64,000 nucleotides of DNA from an uncultured Muribaculaceae bacterium. GTDB taxonomy: Bacteria > Bacteroidota > Bacteroidia > Bacteroidales > UBA932. Positions 9,321-61,402 of this stretch are shown here, in pieces; the first letter of the stretch is position 1, and every line of letters starts with the position of its first letter. The stretch lies in assembly GCA_964608175.1 (NCBI GenBank), contig CAZSMO010000008.1, forward strand, positions 10,291-74,290. Reading direction: 5' to 3'. Made by a program: the position numbers and the translations under genes. The notes beneath the pieces were generated by a model. That model saw only the letters and a list, made by a program, of their open reading frames with translations. It was not told the origin of the DNA and did no database searches.

Positions 9321-9332
9321 TTAGACAGCCAT

Positions 9333-15946: not shown

Positions 15947-15948
15947 CG

Positions 15949-21023: not shown

Positions 21024-21036
21024 CGCCATGAACAAT

Positions 21037-23949: not shown

Positions 23950-23983
23950 TTTCCTTTTAAGGTTTAATGGGAGTTGGGAAGCA

Positions 23984-39021: not shown

Positions 39022-39873
39022 TTAAATCTGGAGAGTGTGATATTTGATGAGGCTGTCCATGGGGGCCTTGATGATTGTCCCCACCCTCATACCAAAGGCT
39101 GACGCGGCCTGTGAAAGCAGGTCCTGATAGTAGTAGGCAACACTGCCAACGCAGTTGAATTCATACTTCCGGTAGTCAGGATAATGGCTCACTATATTTT
39201 GGAAGAAATCCCTGAATGAACCCAACATCAAACCATGATAGTACGGATTACTGTGACGGTGATCCCCAACCCACTTACAGAATTGGGCACAATAGCGGTT
39301 TGGCTTGGGCTTGCAGTAAATCTGATCAAGAAGTTCTTCGCCCTCCTTCCCGATGAGTCCTTTCACCTCAGCAAAGACATCCGCAGGCATATCTCCACGC
39401 ATATAATCCACGATGAGCTTCTTCCCGATGTATGCACCGCTCCCCTCATCGCCGAGGATAAAGCCGAGCGAGTCAATATTAAGTGTAATTTCCTCACCAT
39501 CAAATAGGCAGGAATTGGTCCCAGTCCCGAGTATCGCGGCGAAACCGGCCTTGTGACCGAGCAGAGCCCTTGCCGAAGCCAGCAAATCCATGGCCACAAA
39601 CACTGTCCCAACGGAAGGGAATACCGCTCTGAATATCTCCTCCATCATGGGATAATGCATCGGGGTCACGCCCGCACCATAGAAATACACCTCCTCCACC
39701 TCACCCAGGGGAAAGCCCGAGGGAAGACTCTTCGTGATATCATCCCTAATCTCCTCTTTAGACATGTAGTTGGGATTGTAGCCCAGACTTTGGAATCTCA
39801 CTACTTTCTCACTTTTTCTGGAGCATGCGCCCCAATCGGTCTTGGTGGCACCGGAATCAGCTATCAGTATCAT
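39022..39873 (-). CDS. N-acetylhexosamine kinase-like (BadF/BadG/BcrA/BcrD ATPase family)
   Basis: LIADSGATKTDW, ILGTGTNS, GFILGDEGSGA and CVGSVA. Confidence 0.85.
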   Translation of the reverse strand: MILIADSGATKTDWGACSRKSEKVVRFQSLGYNPNYMSKEEIRDDITKSLPSGFPLGEVEEVYFYGAGVTPMHYPMMEEIFRAVFPSVGTVFVAMDLLASARALLGHKAGFAAILGTGTNSCLFDGEEITLNIDSLGFILGDEGSGAYIGKKLIVDYMRGDMPADVFAEVKGLIGKEGEELLDQIYCKPKPNRYCAQFCKWVGDHRHSNPYYHGLMLGSFRDFFQNIVSHYPDYRKYEFNCVGSVAYYYQDLLSQAASAFGMRVGTIIKAPMDSLIKYHTLQI

Positions 39874-40121: not shown

Positions 40122-41489
40122 CTAATACGACAAATTCCATGCGGGAATGGGCTTGGGACGCATACTTAAGCACCTCTGCTGCTCGGGGCTCAGGTATTTG
40201 CGGGGTACAGCCATGCGCAGCATGTACCTTTCGAACCAGTGGGCTGACATCACGCAGTAGCCCCCGAAGCCCCTTTCGTAGCCGAAACTATTCTCAACCA
40301 CCCAGCTAATAGGCTTGCCTGATGAGGAAAGCCGTACGCCAGTCATAGCGAGGGCATGGGCGGAGGTAATTTCCCCGCTTAATATGAGCTCATCCTTTGA
40401 CATTGCAGAACGAATGCCAAGAAGTGAATCCACCGGATAAAGTCCCGTATCGTAGATCCCCTGATCCTGCAACGCATCCTTGTAGGTGTCGCAGGTAAAA
40501 TAAAACATATCTCCTCCACGCAGCGATGCCACTCCAAGTGCCTCAATCTCCTCAACAGGCAGATTAAGGAAGGTCCAGTCGGGGTATTCATAGCTATTGC
40601 GGGATTCCCGTACAGTATACATCCTGTGATAGGGGCGAGAGGAATCATTCATAATAACGGCATAATCCGCAAGGAGATTGGTCTTAACGAAAGTATCTCT
40701 AAACGAGAGAGGAGTGTATGTGCCAGTGGAAACGCTGTCCCCTTTGCGGTCACAGAGGCTGTACTGAAACTGCGATGGCGGAGTCCCAAGATTGAGACAA
40801 AGCAGTTTCCACACATCCTCCAAAATCTGCCTTTTGATCGAATCAGTCTCGGCAGGGCGACATTCCCGCAAATGGAGCCCGCCTCGACGAAGAAGAGTGC
40901 GGAGTTCACTCATAAGATGGAGATTATTTGCGGCCGCGTAGGTATCCGGCATCACTTCGTATGGGACAAGCCCATATTTGTCTGTAAGATAAGCGGCATT
41001 GAGGAAATGCCCACCATCTCCAACCGGCTTGCGAAAAAGCCATTCGTTGGTCTGGGAGGAGAGCTTTTCATCTCTTGCTGCAATAACCTCTTCGAGAAAA
41101 TGATTGGATTTTTCGAGCAAATCCCAAAACTGAGCGTAACATTCGGAAAACTCAAACCCATCAAGGTCATAATCGCTTATCATCCGCTGCCGTAGAATAT
41201 TCATCACCGAGAAATACCAGCAGCGTCCGGAATTGCCCTGATTTGTAATCCCACGGGAATGCACAAAATAAGTGCATGCAGTATCCAAGGCATCAGCGCA
41301 GGAGCTGTCAAGGGCAGCCATCAGAAAATCCTCCCCCGAAAGTCTTTTCTGAAGGGCCGTATCCACAGGGATGGAGCGAAACGAGGCTATCTCTTGCCCA
41401 GTCAAAGCCCCAGCCCTACGCTGCGAGCAGGAGCAAAAACAGATGACAAGGGCAGTCAGGCTGAATGCTGTGGACAATAATCTATTCAT
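40122..41489 (-). CDS. pepC: Aminopeptidase C / bleomycin hydrolase (peptidase C1B) lipoprotein
   Basis: TNQGNSGRCW (catalytic Cys), SAHALAMTG (His) and WVVENSFG (Asn); likely start MNRLLS at 41489. Confidence 0.88.
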   Translation of the reverse strand: MNRLLSTAFSLTALVICFCSCSQRRAGALTGQEIASFRSIPVDTALQKRLSGEDFLMAALDSSCADALDTACTYFVHSRGITNQGNSGRCWYFSVMNILRQRMISDYDLDGFEFSECYAQFWDLLEKSNHFLEEVIAARDEKLSSQTNEWLFRKPVGDGGHFLNAAYLTDKYGLVPYEVMPDTYAAANNLHLMSELRTLLRRGGLHLRECRPAETDSIKRQILEDVWKLLCLNLGTPPSQFQYSLCDRKGDSVSTGTYTPLSFRDTFVKTNLLADYAVIMNDSSRPYHRMYTVRESRNSYEYPDWTFLNLPVEEIEALGVASLRGGDMFYFTCDTYKDALQDQGIYDTGLYPVDSLLGIRSAMSKDELILSGEITSAHALAMTGVRLSSSGKPISWVVENSFGYERGFGGYCVMSAHWFERYMLRMAVPRKYLSPEQQRCLSMRPKPIPAWNLSY

Positions 41490-41499
41490 ATCTCTCCGC

Positions 41500-42669
41500 T
41501 TAAAGCAGCTTCCGCATCTGCAAGTCAAACCGGTGAAATCTCTCAAACGACTCCGCATTGTACTTCCTGACAGAGTCGATATCAATGCCATAGGAACGGA
41601 ATATCTTATCAAGGCTACATCCGTGGCGGAACTCCTCCATCTCATAGCGTCTGACTGCGGGAAGGATTTCCTTACGAAGAAGACGCATGTCCAAATACAT
41701 TTCCCCACCATTAAACTTGTCCCAATAGGGATGAACTATATGCAGCAAACTATCCGCAAGGGCATTCGCACCGGCAATACCGTTTCCCGATGCGGTGAGT
41801 TGCGAGGGAATTTCATCGCCCGCTGCAAGCCATACCGGTACGGCATAGCAGCAGGGAGTATAGCCGATTGCAGTCCAAATGACGGACGAATTTGCTCTGT
41901 CTCCATCCCCTACTCCCTCTATTACAAGGGAAGAGATGGTGGTGGTACGCGGAATATAATCGAGGTCATATACCATATCCCCAGAGGCTTCCTTACCTGT
42001 CAAGGCATTGTAGAACGACCTTCCTGCCTTATCCAAAAGCCAGGCGGGGGAGAATCCGCTTTCCGCCTGCCTTGTCATCAAGGCACCTATGGTGGCGTAG
42101 CGTGCATAGCCCTGCCCCTTGCCATCCTGGCCGGAAAGAGAAAAATTAGTCCTGTACAGATACCCTCCTTCAGGCACATCATAGCGGGTATATCCCCCGT
42201 CCCAGGCCTCAAAATAGGCTGCTCCGCCATGTGCATCCATTACGGCGAAGTTTGCAGCAATCTCCCATTCCCCTTCCGAAAGCATCCTCTCAAAATCATC
42301 AACACTTTTGCATGAGGCTAGGGCAAGAGACATTACCCTGCCGGCACAGGTGTGCAGGCCGAGCGAATCGGGGCGGATATTGTAAGAGAGATTGTTGGCA
42401 ATCGCAAAGCCTGCATCATTGACTCCGGCATATGCGCTGAGGCGCAGGGTGTCATCTGAATTAAACACTGCTGTGTAGGAGTGGAATTCACTGCTGACAT
42501 GAGCAAGCACATTGTAAGTATCTGCCGCATCCCGCTGCTTCCAGAGCAGAGGTCTCCCCGTCCTGCTTGCTCCCGCTGAAACAATGGCCGTCGTACAGGC
42601 ATATGCCCTGACACAGACAACTGCGACAAAGCAGGTGCATACAGTTCTAATCAGTCCGGATATTCTCAT
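41500..42669 (-). CDS. Secreted Ntn-hydrolase (C45 / acyl-amidase-like)
   Basis: Signal peptide followed by the N-terminal nucleophile CTTAIV, GRPLLWKQRD and RTNFS; likely start 42669. Confidence 0.75.
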   Translation of the reverse strand: MRISGLIRTVCTCFVAVVCVRAYACTTAIVSAGASRTGRPLLWKQRDAADTYNVLAHVSSEFHSYTAVFNSDDTLRLSAYAGVNDAGFAIANNLSYNIRPDSLGLHTCAGRVMSLALASCKSVDDFERMLSEGEWEIAANFAVMDAHGGAAYFEAWDGGYTRYDVPEGGYLYRTNFSLSGQDGKGQGYARYATIGALMTRQAESGFSPAWLLDKAGRSFYNALTGKEASGDMVYDLDYIPRTTTISSLVIEGVGDGDRANSSVIWTAIGYTPCCYAVPVWLAAGDEIPSQLTASGNGIAGANALADSLLHIVHPYWDKFNGGEMYLDMRLLRKEILPAVRRYEMEEFRHGCSLDKIFRSYGIDIDSVRKYNAESFERFHRFDLQMRKLL

Positions 42670-42688
42670 TGACAACCTCAAATGACTA

Positions 42689-43882
42689 TCACTTGCGTAT
42701 CCTGTATCCCTTATAGGCATAATAGAAGATGAACAGATAGCAAGGCAGGCAAATCCAGTATGCAGCCTGATTGCCTATCACGTCTTTAAGGAAGCCGAAT
42801 ATCAGCGGGATAAGGGCTCCACCGCCAATGGAAGCTACCAAAAGCGAAGATCCCACCTTGGTAAAGCGTCCCAGATCCACAATCGCAAGGGGCCAGATTG
42901 CCGGATTCATAAGAGAGCAGGACAGACCAAGGAAAGCCACACACCACACGGAAAGCTTCGGCGGAGTAAGCACAATGAGCAGTGACCCCACGAGAGCAAC
43001 CCAGCAACAGATTCGAAGGGCTCTGACCTGGGACAAACACTTGGGAATGAGGATAATCCCAGCCACATAGCCGATTGCCATGCCCACCGAAGGCCAGATG
43101 GCGTAGGTCTGCGGATTTCGAAGTCCGAGCCAGGCCGCATAATCTACAACGGAAGAGAGAGCAAGAGTCTCAACCCCTGTGTAGAAAAAGAGGGCAAGTG
43201 CCCCAAGCACGAGATGAGGGAACTGCCATATTGATTTTTTTCCTGCCGCATAGGGGCAATCTTCCGGATCTGCCTCACCTGCGGCCTTAACCTCTTCCAA
43301 TGGGGCAAACAGAACAAGGATGCCGAGGGCAATGAAGATACAGATTATAATGATAAAAGGCTTCTGCGTATCGGCAAGAGTAGCATCTCCCAATTGTTTC
43401 CCTATCACTGCTGCAAGAAAGATGGGAGCCACAGCCCAAGCAAGAGAGTTGCAGATTCCCATTATACTCATCCTTCTGGCGGCACTGTCGATGGGTCCGA
43501 GAATGGTGACATAGGGATTTATAGCTGCCTGAAGGACCGTGTTTGCTACTCCGCTGAGAAAGGAAGCAAGGATAAAAAGAACGAGACTGCCGAGCTTTGC
43601 TGAAGGGATAAAAAGAAGGAACGCTATGGCGAACATGAAGAAAGACAAGGACATAGTTCGCTTATAACCAATCCGCCCGATTATTTTGGCAGCAGGGTAA
43701 CTGCATAGCAGGAACGCGCAGAAAGTAGAAGCCACAAGCAGATACGATTCCCCCGAAGAAATCGCAAGGGTAGACTGGAGCAAGGGAATCAGATAGGAAT
43801 TGATCCCCATTGCAAAGCCAACAGTGAAAAACATTACCCCGATACAAGCCAGGGGCAAGGCATACGATCTTCGTATCGTCAT
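42689..43882 (-). CDS. MFS sugar transporter (GluP/FucP/NagP-like)
   Basis: About 12 TM segments, LQAAINPYVTILGP and FFYTGVE; likely start MTIRRS at 43882. Confidence 0.87.
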   Translation of the reverse strand: MTIRRSYALPLACIGVMFFTVGFAMGINSYLIPLLQSTLAISSGESYLLVASTFCAFLLCSYPAAKIIGRIGYKRTMSLSFFMFAIAFLLFIPSAKLGSLVLFILASFLSGVANTVLQAAINPYVTILGPIDSAARRMSIMGICNSLAWAVAPIFLAAVIGKQLGDATLADTQKPFIIIICIFIALGILVLFAPLEEVKAAGEADPEDCPYAAGKKSIWQFPHLVLGALALFFYTGVETLALSSVVDYAAWLGLRNPQTYAIWPSVGMAIGYVAGIILIPKCLSQVRALRICCWVALVGSLLIVLTPPKLSVWCVAFLGLSCSLMNPAIWPLAIVDLGRFTKVGSSLLVASIGGGALIPLIFGFLKDVIGNQAAYWICLPCYLFIFYYAYKGYRIRK

Positions 43883-43908
43883 CTTATGCAGAATAACATC
43901 AGTCTTAC

Positions 43909-44967
43909 TCAAAAAGGAAGGGATGAATAGAGGCCGTTGAAAGTCTGCATACCCTTCCAAGTAGGAGTGCCGAAGGTGGCACTGTTGTTGGAGGCATCAC
44001 AAATCACCCACTGCCCATCAACATAAATCTCCGAGATGACATGGCCGATGACCCTTCCGCCGGAGAAATAGCACTGTCCGTGAATATACCTGGCAGGGAT
44101 TCCAGCTGCTCTTGACATCGCTACAATCGCATGCGAAAGGTCACAACAGTTGCCGCCAAGAGCCTCAATCGTACCTACAGCTCCTTTACGGGTATTGCTG
44201 TAGTCCTCCCACTCCCATTTGTCGCGGGCATATTCGAAAATGGCTACAGCCTTGTCGTGATTTGTGGTCAACCCCTCGGTTGCAGTCTGCATCGTGGACA
44301 CCACAAGCGGGTCGTCAATCGGGCAGTTGGAAGAGCTGCGCAGAAAATCCGACCACCAGGCGGAAACCTTGTCGGGGAGGACAAGGTTGTTCCTGTAGTA
44401 ATTCATGATTCTCGCCATGATCACAACGGCGGCTGGGAAAATCAGCTTTCCAACGTATTCTTCGCTGTAATTGTACTCCACAGTAGATTCACCGCTGAAG
44501 TCGCTTTTCCATGTCCTCGTGCCGAAATTGCAGTAATTGGGATAGGCATTGTGCTCTGCGGCATAGTCTTTCACCTTCCCTATCATCCACTTGACGGCAT
44601 CGAGAGAGATGGAATCCTGCTCAAAGGTATTGTTCTGCATCACGGAACCGCCGGCGTACTTGGGAATCTCGACCTCGCTCTGTTCCTGCCAGGTATCAGG
44701 GTAGGCTTCAATGAGTTCAAGCAATCCGACCGCAGCAGAGAAGCAGTCGGAACGGGTGTAGTTAATCCCTTCCACATTAACCATGGACGGCATCTCATCG
44801 GTCTTCACGAATTCATCGTAGGCATCGGAGATTGCCTGGAGAAATTCCCCGTTCCATGAAGTGGCGGTGAAGACTTCAGGCTCCTGCGGAGTTGGATTCT
44901 CGGAGCGGCAGGAGCAGCACAACAGCATAGAGCCAGCTGCAAGAGCAATAACAAGATTTTTATTCAT
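43909..44967 (-). CDS. Lipoprotein with pseudomurein-binding-repeat-like region and transglutaminase-like (Cys-His-Asp) peptidase domain
   Basis: GGNCCDLSH, AAGIPARYIHG, GHV and WVICDAS triad; N-terminal KVKDYAAEHNAYPNY and ARIMNYYRNNLVLPDKV resemble PMBR units; C-terminal YSSLPF. Confidence 0.8.
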   Translation of the reverse strand: MNKNLVIALAAGSMLLCCSCRSENPTPQEPEVFTATSWNGEFLQAISDAYDEFVKTDEMPSMVNVEGINYTRSDCFSAAVGLLELIEAYPDTWQEQSEVEIPKYAGGSVMQNNTFEQDSISLDAVKWMIGKVKDYAAEHNAYPNYCNFGTRTWKSDFSGESTVEYNYSEEYVGKLIFPAAVVIMARIMNYYRNNLVLPDKVSAWWSDFLRSSSNCPIDDPLVVSTMQTATEGLTTNHDKAVAIFEYARDKWEWEDYSNTRKGAVGTIEALGGNCCDLSHAIVAMSRAAGIPARYIHGQCYFSGGRVIGHVISEIYVDGQWVICDASNNSATFGTPTWKGMQTFNGLYSSLPF

Positions 44968-45071: not shown

Positions 45072-47957
45072 TTACAGAAGAGTAGCATCAATCTTGACAT
45101 CCGCAAGAGCGGTAGGAATATCGGAAGTAATGTTGTTATCAAGCATATACTTGAATGTCCTCGCAAGAATGAGATTGAAGCGCTCGGCGCAGCAGTAGCC
45201 GGAGTAGCCCTTCATGTTGTCAGTGAGGTTGTAGAAGTTGGCAACTCTTTTGCTATCGCCTGAATGTGAGGCAATCCTGTCAACCCACGTCTTGGAAAGG
45301 GTGTTAATCAGATTGTAGTCGGCCTGATTGGCTTCATAACCGTCAAGCTTGCAGGTATAAGGGTCGTTGCTCGGCTGACCTTCAACCCAGCCATTGGGTG
45401 CCCAGACATCAGTCCTGGCCTCGGGAGCGACATCACTTGTCTTGCCACCGGCTACAAGAGCCTGGAAGGCCTGCATGGCGATATCGTTCATGGCAGCCTT
45501 GCTGAGGGTAGTCCCATTGAAGGTGATTGTGAAATCATTGGGCACAATTCTGCCTTCCTGGGTGTAATCGGCTCCTGTAGGTTTGACGGAACCCTTGTTG
45601 CTCTCCCATTTGTCGAGATAAGTTACAAACTGCTTTGCAAAATCGGCAATGGTATTCTCACTCTTGGCAACATCCACACCGAAGAGGTCGGAGTTAAAGG
45701 TCTGATCTTCGGAAACCTCTGCGAGATTGTCGAGACTGTTGTCAAGAACATACTTAAAGACTCTTGCATAGGTGATGAGCCCGCGCTTTGCGGAGAACAT
45801 CCCATAGTAGTTGGTGATAGGACCGCGAGGATAACCCGACCCGTTACTGATTTGATCGTCTTTGTTGTTGGCCCAGTTCATGTTACGCTCCATCCAGTTG
45901 TCAAGGATGTCGAGTTTCACGGTATTGGCGAGGGCATGATCAGGATCTGCAGGATCTCCCAACATCAGAGGTCCGCCATTGCCGACTGTGGTGCTGTCTG
46001 TCCTGGTGTAACCGCCCTCGTTGTAAGGGAGCGAACCCCACGATGAGCCGTGAGTTGCAGGCAGAGCACTTGCAAGCGTGCCGGGGGCATCGAGCTTGGG
46101 AGTTGAACCTACTCCATATTTCTCGGTGTAGTTGCCATCGTAGCCGCGAAGGATTGCATAGCAGCGAAGAGCAAGCTCAAGCATGTCAGCGGTCGTATAC
46201 TCCTGCTCAAGAATGGTGCTCTTGGTGTCATCCGGCACATAGTGGGCATTCTCAACATTGTTGGCGGCATCGTAGTCGCTTCCACTGAAATTCAGTCCGG
46301 TAACCTTATTAATCGTGGTGGTATTAGCGGACCATATATCAATCAGCTTGACATACTGCTCAGCAAAATCGCGAATTGTAGCGACAGCCGCAGCCGACTG
46401 GGTCACCACGATGGTGACAGTGGTAGAACCGGCAGTCAGACCAACGTTCGCAATGCGCTCTGCACCGGTATTGACCTCGGCAGTAACGGTAATGACAGAA
46501 CCGCTTGCTGCTACGCCGGAAGCGGGAGAAACGGTAAGCCAAGCCTGATCGGAGCTTGCAGTCCAATCCTTGCCTGCATTGAAACGAATCTCCTGTGAGC
46601 CGCCATCTGCTATGATTGTGTACTCGGTCTTGCTGACTTCAAGGTCAGGAGCCTCAACTCCATAGAGGTCACAGGTAAAGCTGACATCCTTCACAGCCTC
46701 ATACACATTCTCGCTAATGTTGTTGTCGAGGATGTACTTGTAGAAGTTGGCAAGGGTGAGGAACATACGCATTGCAGACACATAACCGCGATAATTTCCT
46801 TCGGCAAGCTGATTGTCGGGATCGGTAGGATTGAAACCGAGGAAGTTTCCAATGTGTCCAAGTTGCTCGGCCCTCACGAGGAACCAGGCGGCATTGCGGA
46901 CGATGAACGAAGCATTGCATGGATTCTCAGCAGAAATGTTGATAGCTCCGAGTTCATCGGACTTCTCATACCAGGGATAGCTTCCCCAGGTAGCCCAGGC
47001 ATCAGCAGTAGGGATAGACTCCGAGAGAGCCTTTCCGCCACCGAGCGTGTGGTTGGGGGTATTGCGCTGCTCCTGTTTCACCGCAGAACCTTCCTTGGTG
47101 AGGATATCCAGCGCACCCTTTGCCGCCACAACGAAGCACTGTGCAGCATCGTAGGTCTGACCGGCCACGGTAATAGTGTGATAAGGCTGATACTGAGGGT
47201 CGTACTGATCCTTACCATCGGCATAGACACCGCCGCTCCAAGGGATAGGGACGAAGTGCACATTCTCCCAAGCTGTCCCGTTGTCCGTGCAGTGTGAGCC
47301 GTCTGCACTCACTGTACCAACGGTATTCTGCCAGATATCGAGATAGCCGACGAACTGGCGGGCAAAGCCCTTCAAAGTCGCCTCGGCAGACAGATAAGAA
47401 GTGGACACGGTGGCAGGGAGCTTCCCGTCGCTCTTGTACGCGGCAAGGGTTCTCAACATAGTGACAGTGGCCCTGTTGGTGGAGAAGGCGATGGCACCGC
47501 TGGTGCGCTGGAACACGGTCTGATTGGGAACCTGTCCGCGCTCGGCCATCTTGTCTATCAAAGAGTTTGCAATTCCGACAACACTCTCATCTCCTCCGCT
47601 GACAGCAATTTCTTCGGCATCATAACTATCCCTGTCCGGGTGATCGGCAGCCTTGTAATTGAGCACATCGACATCGCCGCCAGTCGTTCCCGCGCCGAGG
47701 TTGGAGACCACTTTGCAAAGAGCATATTGATACTGAGGAAGCGTAAGGGTAGTACTTCCAACAGTAACGGACTCCGGAATGGTGGTGGTGTTTTCCCATT
47801 CCGCATAAGCAGACGCAAATGCGTCAACAAGATCTGACTGGGAAAGAGTCGCGATGCTGTTGACATCGTCATTCTTGTCCTCTTTCTCCTTGGTGCAGGA
47901 GGACATAATCCCCACAAGAGCCAAGGCAGTCAGCAAAATTGACCAAAATTTTTTCAT
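45072..47957 (-). CDS. 961-aa surface lipoprotein: PMBR-like N-terminus, three internal repeats and a BACON domain
   Basis: Lipobox MSSC. Repeats start T(L/I)xxFAxQ(F/Y)V and end KYxLDN. BACON-like WTASSDQAWLTVSPASG. Confidence 0.7.
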   Translation of the reverse strand: MKKFWSILLTALALVGIMSSCTKEKEDKNDDVNSIATLSQSDLVDAFASAYAEWENTTTIPESVTVGSTTLTLPQYQYALCKVVSNLGAGTTGGDVDVLNYKAADHPDRDSYDAEEIAVSGGDESVVGIANSLIDKMAERGQVPNQTVFQRTSGAIAFSTNRATVTMLRTLAAYKSDGKLPATVSTSYLSAEATLKGFARQFVGYLDIWQNTVGTVSADGSHCTDNGTAWENVHFVPIPWSGGVYADGKDQYDPQYQPYHTITVAGQTYDAAQCFVVAAKGALDILTKEGSAVKQEQRNTPNHTLGGGKALSESIPTADAWATWGSYPWYEKSDELGAINISAENPCNASFIVRNAAWFLVRAEQLGHIGNFLGFNPTDPDNQLAEGNYRGYVSAMRMFLTLANFYKYILDNNISENVYEAVKDVSFTCDLYGVEAPDLEVSKTEYTIIADGGSQEIRFNAGKDWTASSDQAWLTVSPASGVAASGSVITVTAEVNTGAERIANVGLTAGSTTVTIVVTQSAAAVATIRDFAEQYVKLIDIWSANTTTINKVTGLNFSGSDYDAANNVENAHYVPDDTKSTILEQEYTTADMLELALRCYAILRGYDGNYTEKYGVGSTPKLDAPGTLASALPATHGSSWGSLPYNEGGYTRTDSTTVGNGGPLMLGDPADPDHALANTVKLDILDNWMERNMNWANNKDDQISNGSGYPRGPITNYYGMFSAKRGLITYARVFKYVLDNSLDNLAEVSEDQTFNSDLFGVDVAKSENTIADFAKQFVTYLDKWESNKGSVKPTGADYTQEGRIVPNDFTITFNGTTLSKAAMNDIAMQAFQALVAGGKTSDVAPEARTDVWAPNGWVEGQPSNDPYTCKLDGYEANQADYNLINTLSKTWVDRIASHSGDSKRVANFYNLTDNMKGYSGYCCAERFNLILARTFKYMLDNNITSDIPTALADVKIDATLL

Positions 47958-47986: not shown

Positions 47987-49351
47987 TTATTTACTGTTCC
48001 ACAAATCGCTCACATCGGGAAAATCTCCGAGCGGATAACGGAAAAGAACCACTCCAGAAGCATTGGAAGACGCAATGAGCTGACAGTCAGAAAGAAGTTC
48101 TTCCGTTGAGAGAGGAGTCACATTGTCGTCCCCCTGATAGGTCTGAATGCCGCTCCAGCATGGTTTTTTGTGGGTATTGGCGGCAAAATAATTGGACATC
48201 GACACCATCCAGCTGTTTCCTGCATTGTAGTTTCCTTTGTAAACCATTGGAATGAGAATGTCGAGATATTCGCTCATCATATCCTTGTCCTGCCCGTAGG
48301 CATAGGTCGTATTACGCTCCGGCATCATGGCAGCCGAGAGCACAATCCCCTCGTCATAGGCATCCACGGCCTCCCTAATCTGACGGCAGAACTCCGTCAC
48401 CGCCGTATAGTTATATATCCCCGCCTCGGGGTAGGCGTGCTTGGACGCAGTTCCAGGAAAACGGATGTAATCAAGATGCAGTCCCTTAACCCCGTAGTCT
48501 TCGAGGTAAGACTTTGCCCTCGCGATGATTCTGTCGAAAAGATCCTGTTTGAGAGTTTTGGAATCATCATCCACGGGGCAGACCCAGCCACCCTCATAGA
48601 AACACTGTACCCAGGCGTGGACCGTGATGTCATTCGCCTGCGCAGCCTCGATAAACTCCAGCGTTGTCTTACGGGCACTTTCATTAAAGGCAGCAGAATT
48701 GAGAAATACATGGTCGTAGCCCTTTGACTTCATCTCCTTCATCACAGCGCAGTCATTTTCAAGCCATTGCGCCCGGTGACTGCTCCAAAGCCAGATGCCG
48801 TTGGGTCTGGTCCCTTCGATAGTCATTACCTCGTTTTCCTTCCCCTTGCTGGAATAGGTCAGAGATTGCCACTGCCCTTCCCCATCGGGAATCCTCTGGT
48901 AAGAGCCTCTTGCAGAAAGAGCCACGGGGTCTGCAAAAGCAGTGCTTCTGGTAACTTCATCTATAGGCGCGCCGTCAGAGCTGAGAGCGAGCTTCAAGCT
49001 AAATTCACTGTCCGAAGCTATGCCGGTCGAAAGGCTCTCATCAGAAGTGGAAATGACAATGCGTTCGCCCTCACTTAAAGAAGTGCCCTCAGGAGCCGTC
49101 CACACATTTCTGCGATTGAAATACTGATCGGAAAGATACAGTCCAACTCCCGAAAGGTCCACAGAGGAAGATGACGTATTGAGCAATTCTACCCATGAAT
49201 CAGCATCCACAGTCTCATCGTGAGCCGAAATCTCATTGATAACAATCCCCTTGTACTTAGCGGCGGATTCCCCTTCGGCTGCATTTTTTCCGCAGGAGGC
49301 AAACGCAGCCAAAGCGAGCAGGGCAAGTATGGTATGATATGTCGTGTTCAT
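47987..49351 (-). CDS. Lipoprotein: lamin-tail-like domain plus TIM-barrel putative glycoside hydrolase
   Basis: IVINEI...DSWVELLN (LTD); GH-like VHAWVQCFY, GLHLDYIRFPG, YGQD, LDILIPMVYKGNY and GVVLFRY. Confidence 0.8.
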   Translation of the reverse strand: MNTTYHTILALLALAAFASCGKNAAEGESAAKYKGIVINEISAHDETVDADSWVELLNTSSSSVDLSGVGLYLSDQYFNRRNVWTAPEGTSLSEGERIVISTSDESLSTGIASDSEFSLKLALSSDGAPIDEVTRSTAFADPVALSARGSYQRIPDGEGQWQSLTYSSKGKENEVMTIEGTRPNGIWLWSSHRAQWLENDCAVMKEMKSKGYDHVFLNSAAFNESARKTTLEFIEAAQANDITVHAWVQCFYEGGWVCPVDDDSKTLKQDLFDRIIARAKSYLEDYGVKGLHLDYIRFPGTASKHAYPEAGIYNYTAVTEFCRQIREAVDAYDEGIVLSAAMMPERNTTYAYGQDKDMMSEYLDILIPMVYKGNYNAGNSWMVSMSNYFAANTHKKPCWSGIQTYQGDDNVTPLSTEELLSDCQLIASSNASGVVLFRYPLGDFPDVSDLWNSK

Positions 49352-49355
49352 GAGC

Positions 49356-50204
49356 CTAATTTATCTCGTGGGGTTGTTCTTTAAGCACTCCGGTCGAGAG
49401 AAGGTAATCTTCAGCCTCTGTAAGTCCGCCGCATTTCTTGATGGCAGTCTCGCAGGTAGCATAATCCAGGGTTGGATTGCGCTCCACCATGGTACGGGTC
49501 AGACGGTCAACCACCTTGTTGTTAATAAGGTGGGCGTGTACCATACGGTTACCCTGAACCCTGCCGAGACGGCACATGACGGTAGTGCTAATCATATCAC
49601 AGATGAGTTTCTGCGAAGTGCCGGACTTCATGCGGGTGGAGCCGGTGATAAACTCCGGTCCGGTAATGACCTCAACGGGGTAATCGGAATACCGGGAAAT
49701 TGGGGAATTGGGGTTATTGACAAATGAGCCGGTAGGGATTCCATGCTCTTTGCATGCTTTTAGCGCAGCCAGCACATAGGGAGTATTTCCGCTCGCAGAG
49801 ATTCCTACCACGATATCCTTTGGTGAAATGTGCTTTTCCTGCAAAGTCCTCCAACCTTCTTCGGTATCATCCTCAGCCTCTTCGAGATCCTGTACGAGAT
49901 TCTCTACCCCTCCTGCCAGCACGCACTGAAACATGTCGGGATCCACCCCGTAGGTATTAGGAATTTCGAGGATGTCGAGCACCGCCAGTTTGCCACCGGT
50001 CCCGCAACCGAGATAAAACATTCGTCCCCCGCCCCTTATCTGATGATCAATCGCGCAGACGAGCTTCTCAAGGTCAGGAAGGACCTTCTCGATAGCCAGA
50101 GGGACCTTCTTGTCCTCCTCATTGATTTCACGCAGCAGTTCCGCCACACTCTTCTTCTCCAAATTGTCGTGCAGAGAAGGCTGTTCAGTCATTCTTAATG
50201 CCAT
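49356..50204 (-). CDS. murQ: MurQ-like sugar-phosphate etherase (SIS domain), divergent
   Basis: EAEDD, GISASGNTPYV, TGPEFITGSTRMKSGTSQK; the canonical [15 protein letters not shown] is replaced by GCGTGGKLAVLDILE. Confidence 0.8.
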   Translation of the reverse strand: MALRMTEQPSLHDNLEKKSVAELLREINEEDKKVPLAIEKVLPDLEKLVCAIDHQIRGGGRMFYLGCGTGGKLAVLDILEIPNTYGVDPDMFQCVLAGGVENLVQDLEEAEDDTEEGWRTLQEKHISPKDIVVGISASGNTPYVLAALKACKEHGIPTGSFVNNPNSPISRYSDYPVEVITGPEFITGSTRMKSGTSQKLICDMISTTVMCRLGRVQGNRMVHAHLINNKVVDRLTRTMVERNPTLDYATCETAIKKCGGLTEAEDYLLSTGVLKEQPHEIN

Positions 50205-50216: not shown

Positions 50217-52064
50217 TTAATCAATCCATTTTTTTGTCTTCACATCCCCTATTCTCTTCCCGTCCCGAAAAGCCGCCGCGCTGACGACTTGCGAGCGGTT
50301 TATGGTGAAGGGAAGCTCATACACAGGAGACTGAGCCGTGGGTTCCGATCCATCGAGAGTATAATGTATCTGCGAATCAGGAGCGTCCACACTCATAGTT
50401 ACCACCTTGTCGTATTTCGTGTCGGGATTAAACTTAATGTAGGGAGCGAAGAAATTGCGGCAGTAAGCCACATGCAGGGCATCAAGCCGTTTAAGATGCC
50501 TCTCCAACCTTCTCGTGAAGCCGTCCCAGTCCTTGGGTGAAGTACTCCAGCCGGATTCCGCGATGGCGCACATCCTCGGCCAGGCCATATATTCGACCCT
50601 TGCAGGGGTTGGCATATATTCGGTCCAGACGCAGCCCTCAACGCCGATGATATAGCGTCTTTCTTCAGAAGTAAGCACAGCGGGCACAGGGTCGTAGTCA
50701 TAAACGGTCTTTAGCAGAGTGGGGCCATCCATGGCAAGGGGTTCACTGTCAGGGTCGCCCTGCCAGTAATCCAAATAATATTTGGGATAAGGAGCCATCA
50801 CGGCCTCATGGTGCATCTGCGCTGCCTTTATCCCGCCTTCCTCTCCAAGCCAGGACATCACCTTGGCATTGGGAGCGAGACCTCCCTGGAGGATTTCGTC
50901 CCAACCGATAATCTCATGCCCCTTGGAATTGATATACCGCTCCATCCTAGTGATGAACCAGCTCTGAAGCTCGTATTCATCCTTTAGGCCTAGCTTTCGG
51001 ATAAGGGCCTGACAATGCGGGCATTGTCTCCATGCCGCCTTGGGACACTCGTCCCCGCCAATGTGCACGAGTTTAGAGGGGAAGAGTTCAAAGACCTCAT
51101 CCATCACATTCTCAAGGAAGTGGAAAGTAGTGTCCTTAGGGCAGAAAACCTGCTTGAACACTCCCCATTTCGTGGCAGTCTCGTACACACTGTCAAGTCC
51201 ACAGCTCAGCTCGGGGTAGCAGGCAATTGCTGCAAGGGCGTGTCCGGGCATTTCGATTTCGGGAATTATGGTCACATATCTCTGTGCGGCATACTCCACA
51301 AGTTCCCTGACCTGCTCCTGGGTGTAATACCCGCCATAAGGCTCGCCGTCATAGATTCCGGATTTCAAGGACCCTATCACGGTCTCCTTACGCCACTGCC
51401 CCTTCTCCGTAAGAAGAGGGTAGCGTTTGATCTCGAGCCTCCAGCCCTGATCCTCCGTGAGATGCCAGTGAAAACGGTTCACCTTATGCAGAGCCATGAG
51501 GTCGATATATCTCTTGAGAAAGCCGATATCGTAGTAGTGCAGGCAGCAGTCGAGATGCATCCCCCTGTACTTAAAGCGGGGCGCATCATCAATGGAGCAG
51601 CACGGCACTTCCCAGCGCACTCCCCTCTGACGGCTGTCAGCGAAAATCTCAACGGGAAGCAGCTGCAGTAGGGTCTGGAGGGCGTAGAAAGCTCCAGCAG
51701 GGTCACCATAGTCTATCACTATCCGGTGTGGCTGGACATTAATTCCATAAGCCTCGGAAGGAAGGCCCGCATTCATGAAGAAAATCCCTTCATCTGCAGA
51801 GAGGTCATCCGTGAGAACAAGCGTAAATCCAGCCGCCTTTTCCAAATGGTCGTTGAGAAACTCTGCCGTACGGATAATGGTGGAATCCCACTCGTGCAAG
51901 ACGATGGGGACTTTCCGAGTGATGGCAAAGCTGCCCTCATCCAAGCGCACATGTGCAGGCTGCGGGATGACGCTCACTTCAAGCGGGGTCTTCGGGCTCG
52001 AAGCGCACCCTGCCGCAAGCACGGCGATGAAGGATATGAATATGTATCTTAAGCCTTTCACCAT
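50217..52064 (-). CDS. GH20 beta-N-acetylhexosaminidase with C-terminal chitobiase/FN3-like domain
   Basis: HWHLTEDQGWR, PEIEMPGH, HIGGDE, GWDE and IHYTLDGSEP. Confidence 0.94.
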   Translation of the reverse strand: MVKGLRYIFISFIAVLAAGCASSPKTPLEVSVIPQPAHVRLDEGSFAITRKVPIVLHEWDSTIIRTAEFLNDHLEKAAGFTLVLTDDLSADEGIFFMNAGLPSEAYGINVQPHRIVIDYGDPAGAFYALQTLLQLLPVEIFADSRQRGVRWEVPCCSIDDAPRFKYRGMHLDCCLHYYDIGFLKRYIDLMALHKVNRFHWHLTEDQGWRLEIKRYPLLTEKGQWRKETVIGSLKSGIYDGEPYGGYYTQEQVRELVEYAAQRYVTIIPEIEMPGHALAAIACYPELSCGLDSVYETATKWGVFKQVFCPKDTTFHFLENVMDEVFELFPSKLVHIGGDECPKAAWRQCPHCQALIRKLGLKDEYELQSWFITRMERYINSKGHEIIGWDEILQGGLAPNAKVMSWLGEEGGIKAAQMHHEAVMAPYPKYYLDYWQGDPDSEPLAMDGPTLLKTVYDYDPVPAVLTSEERRYIIGVEGCVWTEYMPTPARVEYMAWPRMCAIAESGWSTSPKDWDGFTRRLERHLKRLDALHVAYCRNFFAPYIKFNPDTKYDKVVTMSVDAPDSQIHYTLDGSEPTAQSPVYELPFTINRSQVVSAAAFRDGKRIGDVKTKKWID

Positions 52065-53887
52065 CAGAACTGTTTTTGTACCGCCTTCCCAACCGGCTTC
52101 CCACTGGGAGTGAATCCCTGGGCCCGGACAAGGGTCCCTGGAAGGGGAGTGAATACTTCAGTAAATACCGGGGACAAAGCTGTAGGAGCACTCCCATCGA
52201 GGGTATAATGGATTACAGCATCAGGATACGAGAGACGGAGATCGGCCTCATCCGGACGCTTCCTGGTAATGCTGTCGTAATTGAATATCACATTCCAGTA
52301 GGCACTGCTGTACCCCACTCCAAGGGCATCGAGTCTTTGGAAGGACTTTTCAAGACGGGAGCGGAAAGAATCCCAGTCCTTACTCTCGCGAGCCGTCCAG
52401 CCATCTTCGGCAAGGGCTATGGCGCGGGGAAATGCGAGATATTCCGCTCTATCGGAATTCTCACAATACTCACCCCAGATGCAGCCCTCAACCCCGATTA
52501 TATACTTTTCTGAAAGTTCCTGCAGAGAGTCCACACATGGGTAGTAGGAATATACCTTTTCGAGAGGGAGGAAGAGCGACTGGCTCTTGTGCTCGGTTTC
52601 GGGGTCTTCCTGATAGTAATCCAGGTAGCACCAACGGTTCGGAGCGAGGACTACCCTATTGCCGCGCCTGATACCCCGAGCTGCCGGGGCGTGTCCGCGA
52701 TAAGATTCGGCTATCATCCCAGGGACAGCTCCTCCATCGAGAATCTCATCCCACCCCATGACTGTCTTTCCATTGGCACTAAGGAAATTACCTATACGGT
52801 TCACAAAGAAAGTCTGCAAATCGTCATAACTGTCTATTCCGAGCACCGTCATCAGATTGCGGCAGTAGCTGCTGTTTTTCCATGCTGTCTTGGGACATTC
52901 GTCTCCTCCAATGTGGTAAACCGGTGAAGGGAAGAGTTCAAAAAGCTCCCTGAATACATCCTCCAGGAAAGTGAAAGTCGCGGCACTGGGGCAATACACA
53001 TCTTCCTTGACTCCCCAGCTCGTGGCTACGCTATAGGTCTTCGCAGTATCGCAGGAGAGTTCCGGGTAGGCGGCCAAAGCCGCAGTGGAATGTCCCGGGA
53101 GCTCAATCTCGGGGATAACAGTCACCATCCGGCGACGGGCATACTCCACGACCTCCCTCACATCATCTTGGGTATAATAGCCCTCAACTGGTTTTCCATC
53201 GGGATTTTCCCCGTGATAATCAGCGGTAAACGGCCTCTTGGAACCCACCTCGGTAAGACGGGGATATTTCTTAATCTCAATCCTCCAGCCCGAATCCTCG
53301 GTAAGATGCCAGTGAAAGATATTCTGCTTGTACCCTGACATCACATCGATGAACTTCAGAATGGTCTCCTTGGGGATAAAATATCTCCCGCAATCCAGCA
53401 TCAGCCCCCTATACTCAAATTGCGGAGCATCTTCGATATAGCAGCAGGCAGCCTTCCACTTCACTCCCCTGACCTTGGTCGGGGAGCAGATGGAGGCGGG
53501 GAAAAGTTGAAGCAGCGACTGCGCTCCATAAAATGCCCCGGCAGGAGCAGATGCCTCAATCAGGACCGCATCCCGACTGACTGTAAGGCGGTATTCTTCA
53601 TCCCCAAGTCCATCAACTCGCACAAAGGAGATACCTGCGCTCCCAGCGGTGTTCACCTTGATACGATAGCCGGTGGAGGCACTTACCCTTACAGCGAAAT
53701 CTTCCGCCACTTCGGCAAACAGCGGGTCTACAGAAATACCCGTCCTAGCTGTAAGGGTGAATTCCCCTTGCCTCTGCTCCAAAGACTTCGGGGCGGGGAT
53801 GATGTCATAGCGTCCCGGGGCAGCATGCAGAGCCGTCGCGAAGACAAGCGGCAGTATCACCGCGAAAAGTGTCCTAATCCGATTCAT
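52064..53887 (-). CDS. GH20 beta-N-acetylhexosaminidase (second paralog)
   Basis: HWHLTEDSGWR, PEIELPGH, HIGGDE and GWDE. Confidence 0.94.
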   Translation of the reverse strand: MNRIRTLFAVILPLVFATALHAAPGRYDIIPAPKSLEQRQGEFTLTARTGISVDPLFAEVAEDFAVRVSASTGYRIKVNTAGSAGISFVRVDGLGDEEYRLTVSRDAVLIEASAPAGAFYGAQSLLQLFPASICSPTKVRGVKWKAACCYIEDAPQFEYRGLMLDCGRYFIPKETILKFIDVMSGYKQNIFHWHLTEDSGWRIEIKKYPRLTEVGSKRPFTADYHGENPDGKPVEGYYTQDDVREVVEYARRRMVTVIPEIELPGHSTAALAAYPELSCDTAKTYSVATSWGVKEDVYCPSAATFTFLEDVFRELFELFPSPVYHIGGDECPKTAWKNSSYCRNLMTVLGIDSYDDLQTFFVNRIGNFLSANGKTVMGWDEILDGGAVPGMIAESYRGHAPAARGIRRGNRVVLAPNRWCYLDYYQEDPETEHKSQSLFLPLEKVYSYYPCVDSLQELSEKYIIGVEGCIWGEYCENSDRAEYLAFPRAIALAEDGWTARESKDWDSFRSRLEKSFQRLDALGVGYSSAYWNVIFNYDSITRKRPDEADLRLSYPDAVIHYTLDGSAPTALSPVFTEVFTPLPGTLVRAQGFTPSGKPVGKAVQKQF

Positions 53888-55269
53888 AACGAAGGTTCCT
53901 GCTGAATTGCATCGGCTATAGTTTTCTCCACACCATGCAGATAACTGTCCGGCATCGTTGAGGAAAGAGGATACGGGGCCTTGATATAGATATGCATCTG
54001 TTCAGTCTCATACTCATAGCCTTTATGTACCTGATAGGCCCGTTTCGAGGGGAGATAGGAATTTTGTCCGTTGGTGTAGCCGGCAAAGAAAATTGTCCTG
54101 TCAGGGAAGGCGGCACGGGTTTCCATCTGATACTCACAGAAAGGCTCTCCATCGGAGAAGAAGAAAAGCACCCCGTTGACATCAAGGGCATGGAGGTGAT
54201 AACGGAGTTTGGATGGGACTTCTCCATGTGTGAACCTGTCCAAAATCTCCTTCTCCCATCTTCTCACATCATCTCCAAACGAAGCCGACACCTTGGAGGC
54301 CGTAGCCGCAAGCGAATCAGCGTGGTGCATTACCGCCTCAGGGGTTATGGAGTCAATCTGATACGGCAAATCAACCGTCTCATTCACAAGGTTCAGATAG
54401 CCTGCGTCCGGGATTTTTCTAAAAGACATTCCGACAAGGGAATCCGCGAGAGACTTACCGCATTGCCCTGCATAAGTGCTGTCGCGAGGTCCGAGAACAG
54501 GATCCATATTGCCGGCAGCTCCAGTGAGTTGGAACACCTCCCCTCCCCAAGCCTTCGAAAGGTATCTTGCCGCAACTCCGGGATAGTCAGAGGACAGGGC
54601 GAGGCTCTTCGGTCCCATGCAGACAGGGTGACAGGCGAGGTTGACGATAGAGACTCTGACCCTTCCTTTTTGGAGAAATCTTGCCACATATACATCGTGG
54701 TCCACGGGGCCGCCCTTCTCGCAACGATTGGCATTGATGGAGGTATGCGCTTTACCAACTTCCATGGTAAAGGGAGCAAAGGCGCGCTCATCAGTAATGG
54801 CCTGCACAGCATTTGACACAACGGTCTCCACCATCCTAATCTTCCATGCACGGTTCGTTCCACCTTCCTGTATGGAAGGCCCGCCAGAGCGCGGTGCCGA
54901 ATGGGTGTGGATGCAATGCATCAGGATTCTGTCTTTGGGAAAGCCAGCCCTCTCGGAAATCATTGTCCTTATCGTGTCCGAAATTGCGGGAGAAAGTTCC
55001 ATGAGGTCATTTGAGATAAGGCATACCTGCTCTCCACCGGGCTCTTTCAGCACGAGACAGTGGGTATAGATTTTCTGATGTATTCCATCCGACAGCTTGT
55101 TTCGCGCCGCAAAACCAGCGAGGATAGTGTGCTCCTCGGGAGTTGTGGAAATGTCAGCCGAGCGGTAACTCATCTCAAGCGAGGGCTTCCCGCTGCAACT
55201 GAAAAGCCCGGTCAGCAGGGCGATACAGAGACAATATCCGATAAGTCTTTTCATCACTGAATGTTGCAA
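53884..55269 (-). CDS. Neutral/alkaline ceramidase-like amidohydrolase lipoprotein
   Basis: LAGFAAR, HCIHTHSAP, ACHPV, SSDYPG, GEPF and AGYTNG...YLP; lipobox LFSC. Confidence 0.72.
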   Translation of the reverse strand: MQHSVMKRLIGYCLCIALLTGLFSCSGKPSLEMSYRSADISTTPEEHTILAGFAARNKLSDGIHQKIYTHCLVLKEPGGEQVCLISNDLMELSPAISDTIRTMISERAGFPKDRILMHCIHTHSAPRSGGPSIQEGGTNRAWKIRMVETVVSNAVQAITDERAFAPFTMEVGKAHTSINANRCEKGGPVDHDVYVARFLQKGRVRVSIVNLACHPVCMGPKSLALSSDYPGVAARYLSKAWGGEVFQLTGAAGNMDPVLGPRDSTYAGQCGKSLADSLVGMSFRKIPDAGYLNLVNETVDLPYQIDSITPEAVMHHADSLAATASKVSASFGDDVRRWEKEILDRFTHGEVPSKLRYHLHALDVNGVLFFFSDGEPFCEYQMETRAAFPDRTIFFAGYTNGQNSYLPSKRAYQVHKGYEYETEQMHIYIKAPYPLSSTMPDSYLHGVEKTIADAIQQEPSL

Positions 55270-57292: not shown

Positions 57293-57299
57293 GGTGATT

Positions 57300-60200: not shown

Positions 60201-60392
60201 AGCATCGGACATGGCGGTTGCAGAGGAGCTTGTAGTCCCCTTTACATAAACCACTGCCCCGACCTGCGGCTCTCCGTCTTCAGCAGATGTGACCGTGCCT
60301 GTGACGGTGATAGTCTTGCCGCCCTGAGCTGACGCGACCGTAGAGCCCAGGATGAGCGCAAAGACAGTAAGGAACTTCCCGATAGTTTTCAT
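57300..60392 (-). CDS. SusC/RagA family TonB-dependent receptor
   Basis: [26 protein letters not shown] and C-terminal ...GVKLSF. A TATGTTTG promoter box lies at 60446-60453. Confidence 0.96.
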   Translation of the reverse strand: [1030 protein letters not shown]

Positions 60393-60445: not shown

Positions 60446-60599
60446 CAAACATAAGAAAAAATTTCGTTAGTGAAAGCTTTTTAGGCAAAAATTTTTTCGT
60501 TTTCCCGATTTTTTTGTTTCGTTCACAACCTAAAACGAAACATTTTCGAAATATGCAGGGGTTAAACGAAACTTTTCGTATCTTGCAGAAAATTTCGTT
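60446..60599. promoter_or_regulatory. Divergent promoter region with repeated TTTCGTT/AACGAAA operator-like heptamers
   Basis: TTTCGTT at 60462, 60495, 60517 and 60593; AACGAAA at 60534 and 60565; near matches at 60544 and 60574. Confidence 0.6.
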
Positions 60600-60637
60600 T
60601 GCTACCTGCCATGGCAGGTGGAGGTCTAAAATATATT

Positions 60638-61402
60638 ATGGGAGCAATTTTAGAGAGGAGAAAATACATCCTCGATGCAATCGTAGATCAGGGCTTTGTT
60701 AAAGTCTCATCCCTCGCCACCAAGTTCGGCGTCACTCAAACCACAATCCGTAAGGACCTTAATTATCTTGAGAGTCAAGGACTTCTATACAGGGCATACG
60801 GCAGTGCCCTCCCGACCGCAGCTCCCATAAAAGATATCAGTCTGGAGACCAAGAAAAGGATCAATTATGAAAAGAAGCAGAAAATCGCCGAGGCCGCCTG
60901 CTCCCTGATTGAGCCAAACGACTCAATCATCATTGCTTCAGGGTCCACAATGGCTGTCTTTGCCGATCATATCAAGCCCAAGGACAGGCTCAATGTGGTG
61001 ACCTCCGCAGTGAACATCTCGGCCAGCCTTGGGGAGACTGACAATGTCACAGTCATGCAGGTAGGCGGCATACTCTATTCCAACACACTCTCTGTCTCTG
61101 GAAACGATGCAATAGAGTTTATCCGTAACATCTTCTGCAACAAACTCTTCTTTGGCGGGGACGGGCTGGACCCGCAGTACGGCGTGACCTGCGCGGTGAG
61201 GGAGGAGGCGGAACTCACCAAACAGATGATGCAGTCCTCCAAGACTCACATCCTTCTGTGCGATTCCACCAAACTAGGCAGGAAAGGCTTTGCCCGCATC
61301 TGCCCAATTGAGGATATCGACATCCTAATCACCGATGATGAACTCCCGGCCGAGGGTAAAGAGCATATTGAAGCGGCTGGCGTTAAGGTAATTATAGCAT
61401 AG
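60638..61402 (+). CDS. DeoR/GlpR (AgaR-like) transcriptional regulator
   Basis: HTH VTQTTIRKDLNYLE...RAYG, IIIASGST and LLCDSTKLG; divergent from SusC; likely start 60638. Confidence 0.92.
   Translation: MGAILERRKYILDAIVDQGFVKVSSLATKFGVTQTTIRKDLNYLESQGLLYRAYGSALPTAAPIKDISLETKKRINYEKKQKIAEAACSLIEPNDSIIIASGSTMAVFADHIKPKDRLNVVTSAVNISASLGETDNVTVMQVGGILYSNTLSVSGNDAIEFIRNIFCNKLFFGGDGLDPQYGVTCAVREEAELTKQMMQSSKTHILLCDSTKLGRKGFARICPIEDIDILITDDELPAEGKEHIEAAGVKVIIA

Follow-up and report, generated by a model that had tools for sequence, protein, structure and literature searches.

What does a large lipoprotein with no recognizable enzyme domain do inside a SusC/SusD locus? The question is raised by a 961-amino-acid (aa) open reading frame (ORF) with an ATG start at 45072..47957 on the minus strand of the stretch of DNA analyzed here (the window; 64,000 nucleotides of contig CAZSMO010000008.1, from an uncultured Muribaculaceae bacterium). 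With moderate confidence, we read the product of this target gene as a multivalent, non-catalytic, peptidoglycan-binding surface protein, similar to a surface glycan-binding protein (SGBP) and serving as the capture arm of a SusC/SusD locus that scavenges bacterial peptidoglycan. A preliminary description of the same ORF had proposed a multivalent surface glycan-binding protein, possibly one that tethers the cell to methanogens. All eight motif strings that it quoted lie in the ORF (at aa 43, 168, 193, 526, 768, 394, 722, and 923), and its general proposal agrees with the lipoprotein signal, the repeated, non-enzymatic-looking modules, the BACON domain, and the SusC/SusD locus described below.

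The N-terminus of the target, MKKFWSILLTALALVGIMSSC-TKEKEDKNDD, carries a lipoprotein signal and an acidic stretch after Cys21. Acidic stretches after the lipidated cysteine are associated with surface export in Bacteroidota. The stretch in the target is probably such a surface-export signal, which would expose the protein at the cell surface; the heads of homologous proteins likewise begin with Cys followed by K/D/E-rich stretches. Pfam recognized a single feature in the target, a BACON domain at aa 439–522 (BACON_2, E = 2.4e-12; BACON, E = 1.4e-10), and the scores for PF13004 and PF19190, 41.4 and 47 bits, exceed the cut-off of 25. The domain lies between repeats 1 and 2, where the preliminary description had placed it. 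The only PDB sequence match of the target was to the BACON region of a GH16 enzyme (8va4, E = 4e-8); used as queries against PDB sequences, the head, repeat, and head-type profiles and the relative P0250 gave only the BACON match or noise. No NCBIfam model scored above its cut-off, and no catalytic family was found in Pfam, NCBIfam, or PDB sequences, nor a catalytic fold by Foldseek. The resulting architecture is as follows.

47895..47957, minus strand: lipoprotein signal peptide and lipobox, aa 1–21, with Cys21 (read from sequence)
47382..47894, minus strand: head-type module, aa 22–192, folded core at about aa 33–190 (head alignment, model, and hhalign)
46650..47381, minus strand: repeat 1 (R1), long type, aa 193–436 (BLASTP, repeat profile, and AlphaFold2 model)
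46392..46643, minus strand: BACON domain, aa 439–522 (Pfam and PDB sequence match)
45663..46391, minus strand: repeat 2 (R2), second subtype, aa 523–765 (BLASTP, repeat profile, and conservation)
45075..45662, minus strand: repeat 3 (R3), short subtype, aa 766–961 (BLASTP, repeat profile, and conservation)

When the whole protein was compared with itself by BLAST, only the identity match appeared; the repeats became visible after the protein was cut into head (aa 22–192), R1 (189–436), R2 (522–765), and R3 (764–961). The repeat segments, of 248, 244, and 198 aa, respectively, can be aligned with one another from end to end, with about 24% of residues identical (BLASTP E = 1e-14 for R1/R2, 8e-12 for R1/R3, and 1e-8 for R2/R3). 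With matches this far beyond chance, the sequences identify R1, R2, and R3 as true internal duplications. The three copies of an unrecognized repeat that had been noted earlier are thus borne out, and no known family covers either the head or the repeats.

The head belongs to the same family. A 21-sequence head alignment matched a 40-sequence repeat alignment in hhalign with 69% probability (E = 4.3e-5), pairing "IP" with "VP", "HPxRDSYD" with "WGxxPWYE", "PNQ" with "IGN", and "FSTNR" with "SAMR" around a common "TVxGxxxT" hairpin. In the predicted structures, head and R1 share the same core order (helix, hairpin, helix, then helix, hairpin, helix), with long loop insertions in R1. Profile comparison therefore indicates that the head is a compact form, of about 170 aa, of the module seen in the repeats, and that the target contains four module copies. 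The preliminary view of the repeats as expanded versions of the head holds on both counts, profile match and order of secondary-structure elements.

To describe conservation, we counted residues over 431 repeat copies, numbered as in R1 of the target. W209, P237, E331, N371, G391, and R397 are kept in about 100% of copies; H234 (99%), A278, and P328 in 98–99%; K407, L410, D411, and N412 in 93–97%; and W324, G325, and Y389 (89%) in 89–92%. R2 carries the equivalent set W542, H572, P575, E647, N705, Y717, and R725. R3 keeps W784, P806, E859, N907, Y918, and R926, with Arg803 at the His position. Conserved residues of the head are W54, P61, P107, D110, Y112, N145, R162, R169, and Y174. The Trp, His, Glu, Asn, Tyr, and Arg set may shape a pocket that accepts an anionic amino-sugar ligand, for example a glycan or muropeptide containing N-acetylmuramic acid (MurNAc).

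We modeled R1 with AlphaFold2 from the 40-repeat alignment, which gave a predicted local distance difference test (pLDDT) score of 95 and a predicted template modeling (pTM) score of 0.93. Foldseek found no neighbor of this model at E ≤ 0.001 in 350,542 PDB chains or in BFVD (best E, 2 to 5). Judged by its predicted fold, the module is a new domain family without a detectable fold neighbor in PDB or BFVD. A model of head plus R1 had a pLDDT of 88.6, with most of the head above 90; from its pTM of 0.67, the joint between head and R1 seems to be flexible.

The family is rare and narrow: when 1.84 billion cluster representatives were searched exhaustively with a profile, only 158 proteins proved to contain the module. 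A word-indexed search returned 217 relatives; the 120 that were listed span 659 to 1677 aa, and the few of these named by their source are called "BACON domain-containing protein" or "hypothetical protein" and come from Bacteroidales metagenome-assembled genomes (MAGs). Neither a look-up of the exact protein in public assemblies nor a search of sequencing runs for the target gene gave a match, and a literature search found no description of the protein family or its module. By the three-repeat profile, the architecture is fixed at its N-terminal end: lipoprotein signal, head, R1-type repeat, and BACON, then one to four or more repeats. Across homologues, the number of repeats (2 to 5 or more) and the order of the R1-like, R2-like, and short R3-like subtypes vary freely, as is typical of tandem binding modules. 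Head-type modules also occur in tandem, the head hidden Markov model (HMM) finding four copies with a transglutaminase core in P0228, whose gene directly follows a SusC/SusD pair, and three copies in P0250. Single modules are joined to a calcineurin-like phosphoesterase, Big_2/Lcl_C, a BamB-like propeller, DUF4988/BACON, or Glug. In the first of these (P0151, locus L017), one repeat module lies N-terminal to a calcineurin-like phosphoesterase that has MetallophosN/C domains; the gene adjoins one for a paralogous phosphoesterase and is not part of a SusC/D locus. This fusion implies that the module is reused as an appendage on other enzymes.

What the modules might bind is suggested by the genes around the target, which are listed below in the order of the operon-like block.

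60599..61402, plus strand: divergent DeoR-family regulator (Pfam)
57300–60392, minus strand: SusC-like TonB-dependent transporter (Pfam)
55286–57319, minus strand: SusD-like protein (Pfam)
53884..55269, minus strand: 461-aa protein with a neutral-ceramidase-like N-terminal domain, candidate amidase (Pfam Ceramidase_alk, E = 1.3e-10; syntenic)
52064–53887 and 50217–52064, minus strand: two glycoside hydrolase family 20 (GH20) β-N-acetylhexosaminidases (Pfam; E = 1.4e-108 and 3.5e-118, respectively)
49356..50204, minus strand: MurQ-family N-acetylmuramic acid 6-phosphate etherase (NCBIfam NF003915)
47987..49351, minus strand: lipoprotein with a lamin-tail domain (LTD) and a DUF4015 glycoside-hydrolase-like (GHL) domain, the immediate upstream neighbor of the target in 10 of 13 related loci
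45072..47957, minus strand: target
43909..44967, minus strand: partner lipoprotein with a head-type module (about aa 20–210) and a transglutaminase-like cysteine-peptidase core (Pfam and hhalign)
42689..43960, minus strand: major facilitator superfamily (MFS) sugar transporter of the NagP/GluP family, candidate importer of MurNAc or N-acetylglucosamine (GlcNAc) (family match; syntenic)
41500–42720, minus strand: C45/AAT-like N-terminal nucleophile (Ntn) hydrolase (family match)
40122–41711, minus strand: C1-like aminopeptidase of the PepC type, listed ORF (family match)
39022..39873, minus strand: BadF-type sugar kinase, MurK family (match to Tannerella forsythia MurK structures; syntenic)

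The minus-strand block runs from the SusC-like gene to the kinase, which follows the C1-like aminopeptidase after one unannotated ORF; the aminopeptidase ORF probably starts later than listed because it overlaps the next gene. The MurQ-family protein scores 298 bits against NF003915 (cut-off, 168), and the kinase matches the T. forsythia MurK structures 8oqw and 8ow9 over its full length (E of about 1e-57). The locus thus encodes together a MurQ, a MurK-family kinase, and a candidate inner-membrane transporter for MurNAc. This sugar is specific to bacterial murein and absent from pseudomurein, so the combination points to bacterial murein, not pseudomurein, as the substrate. An MFS transporter, MurK, and MurQ also make up the characterized MurNAc-scavenging operon murT-murK-murQ of T. 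forsythia (PMC5790795, PMC7670621).

The gene order SusC, SusD, GH20(s), MurQ, LTD/GHL lipoprotein, target, transglutaminase-like protein, MFS transporter, and kinase is conserved in 13 species-representative genomes, which are Bacteroidales MAGs recovered from human gut, goat rumen, yak omasum, and elsewhere. Twelve of these 13 loci carry MurQ, placed between the GH20 gene and the LTD/GHL gene. One full locus of Bacteroidales type (L008, CAVKLO010000034.1) is filed in a "Bulleidia sp." (Firmicutes) bin, probably through a binning error. The ceramidase domain is the only recognizable feature of the 461-aa protein, a candidate wall-locus amidase conserved right after SusD. At this position, L003, L005, L007, and L012 each have a single ORF of 1035–1044 aa whose best match is the GH20a protein and which may be a fusion with the ceramidase-like protein. 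The LTD/DUF4015 lipoprotein, with its glycoside-hydrolase-like TIM-barrel domain, could be the missing endo-acting wall glycosidase; additional DUF4015 paralogues occur in more distant loci.

The module also links the target to its neighbor. The partner lipoprotein has a transglutaminase-like core (Pfam Transglut_core, E = 4.6e-19) with the catalytic residues Cys274/275, His309, and Asp324 in place. Its N-terminal 190 aa or so match the head profile (hhalign, 78% probability, E = 1.9e-5), as do, by the head HMM, the N-terminal domains of transglutaminase-like neighbors in related loci (E = 1e-9 to 2e-4). In P0006 (loci L014 and L015), the target homologue and the transglutaminase-like protein form one in-frame polypeptide of 1336 aa. 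The P0006 locus additionally encodes a glutamate symporter (Glt, in L014) and an M20 peptidase. We also considered the partner as an orthologue of the pseudomurein endoisopeptidases (Pei; Peptidase_C71, PF12386) and rejected this assignment; it matched Transglut_core only, and BLASTP against PeiP gave E = 0.38–0.64.

From these elements, a mechanism can be proposed. The head and three expanded modules of 200–250 aa, with BACON as a spacer after the first expanded one, would place several pockets on one tether and so provide avidity for insoluble wall fragments. The target would hold such fragments at the surface while adjoining lipoproteins cut them, the candidate cutters being the transglutaminase-like cysteine peptidase with its own head module, the LTD/GH-like protein, and the two GH20 enzymes. 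The released products would next enter through SusC/D, and the MFS transporter, the MurK-type kinase, and MurQ would turn MurNAc into GlcNAc-6-P.

Several observations weigh against this reading. We infer binding rather than catalysis, surface exposure, and the ligand, the last from the gene neighborhood only, and the predicted fold of R1, being without a structural neighbor, offers no hint of function. The MurQ protein scores 249 bits against the equivalog model TIGR00274, below its cut-off of 302, and the kinase is almost as similar to relatives named as GlcNAc kinases as it is to MurK. The target is present in locus L006, where MurQ, the transglutaminase-like gene, the MFS transporter, and the kinase are all missing, and single-module relatives exist outside such loci. 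The Glu, Asn, and Arg residues kept in essentially every repeat copy would also fit an active site. Finally, the only structural and Pfam echoes of the module point to a domain that binds pseudomurein, not murein. Three other explanations were weighed.

In the first, the modules bind another amino-sugar-rich glycan (host mucin or N-glycan, chitin, capsule, or a teichoic-type polymer) or act mainly as a rigid spacer, and MurQ and the kinase serve general amino-sugar catabolism. The absence of MurQ from L006 would fit this explanation, as would the single-module relatives outside MurQ loci, for example beside a pectinesterase-like gene or a phosphoesterase; loci for host glycans and for chitin also commonly contain GH20 pairs, BACON domains, and NagP-like transporters. 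However, MurQ sits inside the operon at a constant place in all but one of the 13 loci, and the cysteine peptidase-like partner together with C1, C45, and M20 peptidases (with the Glt symporter of L014) fits a glycan that bears peptides. A pure spacer would not be expected to keep its residues so strictly in every copy. We regard this explanation as unlikely.

In the second, each module is a catalytic domain, of a new family, that cleaves a wall polymer as a glycosidase, lyase, or amidase, and the target is a multi-headed surface enzyme. Invariant Glu, Asn, and Arg, with nearly invariant His, Tyr, and Trp, in copies that are only about 25% identical are what such an enzyme might show; Pfam scans of the locus proteins revealed no recognizable endo-acting muramidase; and a new fold carries no precedent against catalysis. 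However, the head has Asp in place of the Glu of the repeats, inside a different local motif. Two to five or more tandem copies, shuffled in number and order, would be unusual for catalytic domains, and single modules occur attached to genuine enzymes (Metallophos and transglutaminase cores), a pattern typical of targeting domains. Foldseek also returned no lysozyme-like or glycosidase fold, although such folds are well represented in PDB. A catalytic role for the modules therefore seems quite unlikely.

In the third, the modules are derivatives of the pseudomurein-binding repeat (PMBR) that bind pseudomurein and tether the cell to Methanobrevibacter-type methanogens, for syntrophy, predation, or foraging, with the neighbor acting in a Pei-like manner. 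The description of the head as PMBR-like is weakly supported. In the Foldseek search with head plus R1, PeiP ranked first among PDB chains (8z4f_A, E = 8.2e-3, probability 0.92), followed by 8z4f_B (E = 0.36, probability 0.84, 101 columns at a root-mean-square deviation of 4.9 Å), with PeiR (8z4h and 8z4n) lower in the list; none reached E ≤ 1e-3. R1 alone has no Pei match in PDB or BFVD, so this signal must come from the head. PeiP and PeiR have PMBR repeats in common but differ in peptidase family, C71 versus C39 (PMC6189367), and the match of the head therefore probably falls on the PMBR part, the aligned residues themselves not being reported by the tool. PMBR (PF09373, gathering score 24.9 bits) is also the sole Pfam family that head-type modules match recurrently: in 3 of 21 heads (best E = 0.014) and in 5 of 21 head-type modules (best E = 3.1e-5). 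P0250, P0253, and P0006 reach 24.6, 23.9, and 23.0 bits, all below the cut-off; the partner lipoprotein has a sub-threshold match (E = 0.018); and one relative carries a precomputed PMBR label.

For the target, by contrast, a Pfam search of the entire sequence (E ≤ 0.1) gave no PMBR match, nor did one of just the head (E ≤ 10). The PeiP sequence matched the head-type profile with only 2.5% probability in hhalign, and neither this match nor that to the repeat profile was significant. We also built a Pei-only profile from ten PMBR motifs of PeiP, PeiW, and PhiF3, with shuffled or reversed sequences as controls. It gave at most 6.2 bits across 456 family and locus proteins, compared with 1.8 bits for shuffled sequences, and was judged to give no signal over the controls. 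Genuine PMBRs are motifs of 30–35 aa in contiguous arrays (PMC2989375), of which PeiP has four within aa 5–155; the units of the target are instead modules of 170–250 aa, with no PeiP- or PeiW-style array of two to four such motifs.

Module and PMBR have features in common. In PeiP, PeiW, and MTH719, as presumably in the head modules, a non-catalytic wall-targeting element lies N-terminal to a transglutaminase-like or papain-like cysteine peptidase, and both show a recurring helix followed by "G-x-x-P-x-x-V". The module differs in being a globular unit with at most one motif visible to Pfam rather than two to four short ones, in its bacterial host, in a locus that points to murein, and in the lack of a significant sequence link to Pei PMBRs. 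The module may thus be a distant, elaborated relative of PMBR.

The layout of head module followed by transglutaminase-like core, which mirrors the PMBR-plus-C71 layout of PeiP and PeiW (PMC2989375), would also suit a methanogen target. Most of the related genomes come from rumen or gut, the habitat of such methanogens, and GH20 enzymes could in principle attack the GlcNAc- and N-acetylgalactosamine (GalNAc)-containing glycan of pseudomurein. Nevertheless, with MurQ, a MurK-type kinase, and a sugar transporter integral to the locus in 12 of 13 genomes, pseudomurein lacking MurNAc, no PMBR match in the head of the target, no Pei match for R1, and no Peptidase_C71 match in the neighbor, this explanation, with the tethering to methanogens that was suggested earlier, seems quite unlikely. 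A literature search on bacterial pseudomurein degradation returned nothing relevant. The head-type profile retrieved only 21 proteins in a word-indexed search, and none of these was labeled archaeal.

Returning to a peptidoglycan-capturing SGBP-like protein, we tentatively extend the proposal to a broader one, though we think it somewhat less likely than not to hold in full: Bacteroidales of the gut and rumen may have a SusC/SusD locus dedicated to cell-wall utilization, with which they feed on the walls of neighboring microbes. Its capture arm would consist of a new family of wall-binding modules that are globular and either descend from the archaeal and viral PMBR or are related to it. These modules would be reused in three settings: strung together in tandem, as a targeting domain on a transglutaminase-like wall peptidase, and attached to other surface enzymes. 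The R1-, R2-, and R3-like subtypes could recognize different wall chemistries, possibly including pseudomurein.

Peptidoglycan is among the most abundant polymers of gut and rumen contents. A literature search found no SusC/D-type polysaccharide utilization locus (PUL) described for it, and this type of locus appears to be undescribed. If the target is the capture component, its module would define a new family of wall-binding domains whose fold is predicted with confidence and lacks a PDB neighbor. The proposal, if true, would offer a way to study the recycling of bacterial necromass, or attacks on neighboring cells, by uncultured Bacteroidales, and the modules could serve as cell-wall probes or targeting domains. 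The weak link to PMBR raises the question of whether wall-binding modules have been exchanged between methanogen viruses and gut bacteria.

Elsewhere, the 64-kb window holds at least four SusC-type TonB-dependent transporters, typical of a Bacteroidales genome. A second SusC (21037–24000) and SusD (19467–21035) pair lies on the minus strand, in the region 12939–24000. It is followed by ADP-ribosylglycohydrolase-domain proteins at 15949–19572 (1207 aa, with two such stretches) and 14426–15946 (minus strand), and an esterase at 12939–14429 (minus strand) completes the region, whose content is unusual for a PUL. Two further SusC-like genes, one with a SusD partner, lie within 1663–4890 and 6339–10859.

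Among known systems, LysM, SPOR, and PGRP-type modules are functional analogues only. What they have in common with the target is the proposed role, avidity for murein glycan through small domains present in several copies; no similarity to them appeared in the Pfam, PDB, or Foldseek results for the target. SGBPs of the SusE/SusF type are closer. Like the target, they are lipoproteins from a SusC/SusD operon that combine a BACON-type spacer with tandem modules of varying number; their modules are non-catalytic, as those of the target probably are. Unlike them, the target is not encoded directly after susD, its modules are predicted to be α/β without a fold neighbor rather than Ig-like or β-sandwich carbohydrate-binding modules, and its presumed substrate is the cell wall rather than a dietary or host polysaccharide.

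The catabolic end of the locus resembles the MurNAc cluster of T. forsythia (MurT-MurK-MurQ with AmpG; PMC5790795, PMC7670621, PMC10465942), which likewise combines an MFS transporter, a MurK-family kinase, and MurQ in a Bacteroidota genome. In these three papers, that cluster is not described with SusC/D, GH20 pairs, or a transglutaminase-like or repeat lipoprotein. In the locus studied here, by contrast, the MurNAc catabolic trio is embedded in a full locus for outer-membrane capture and import.

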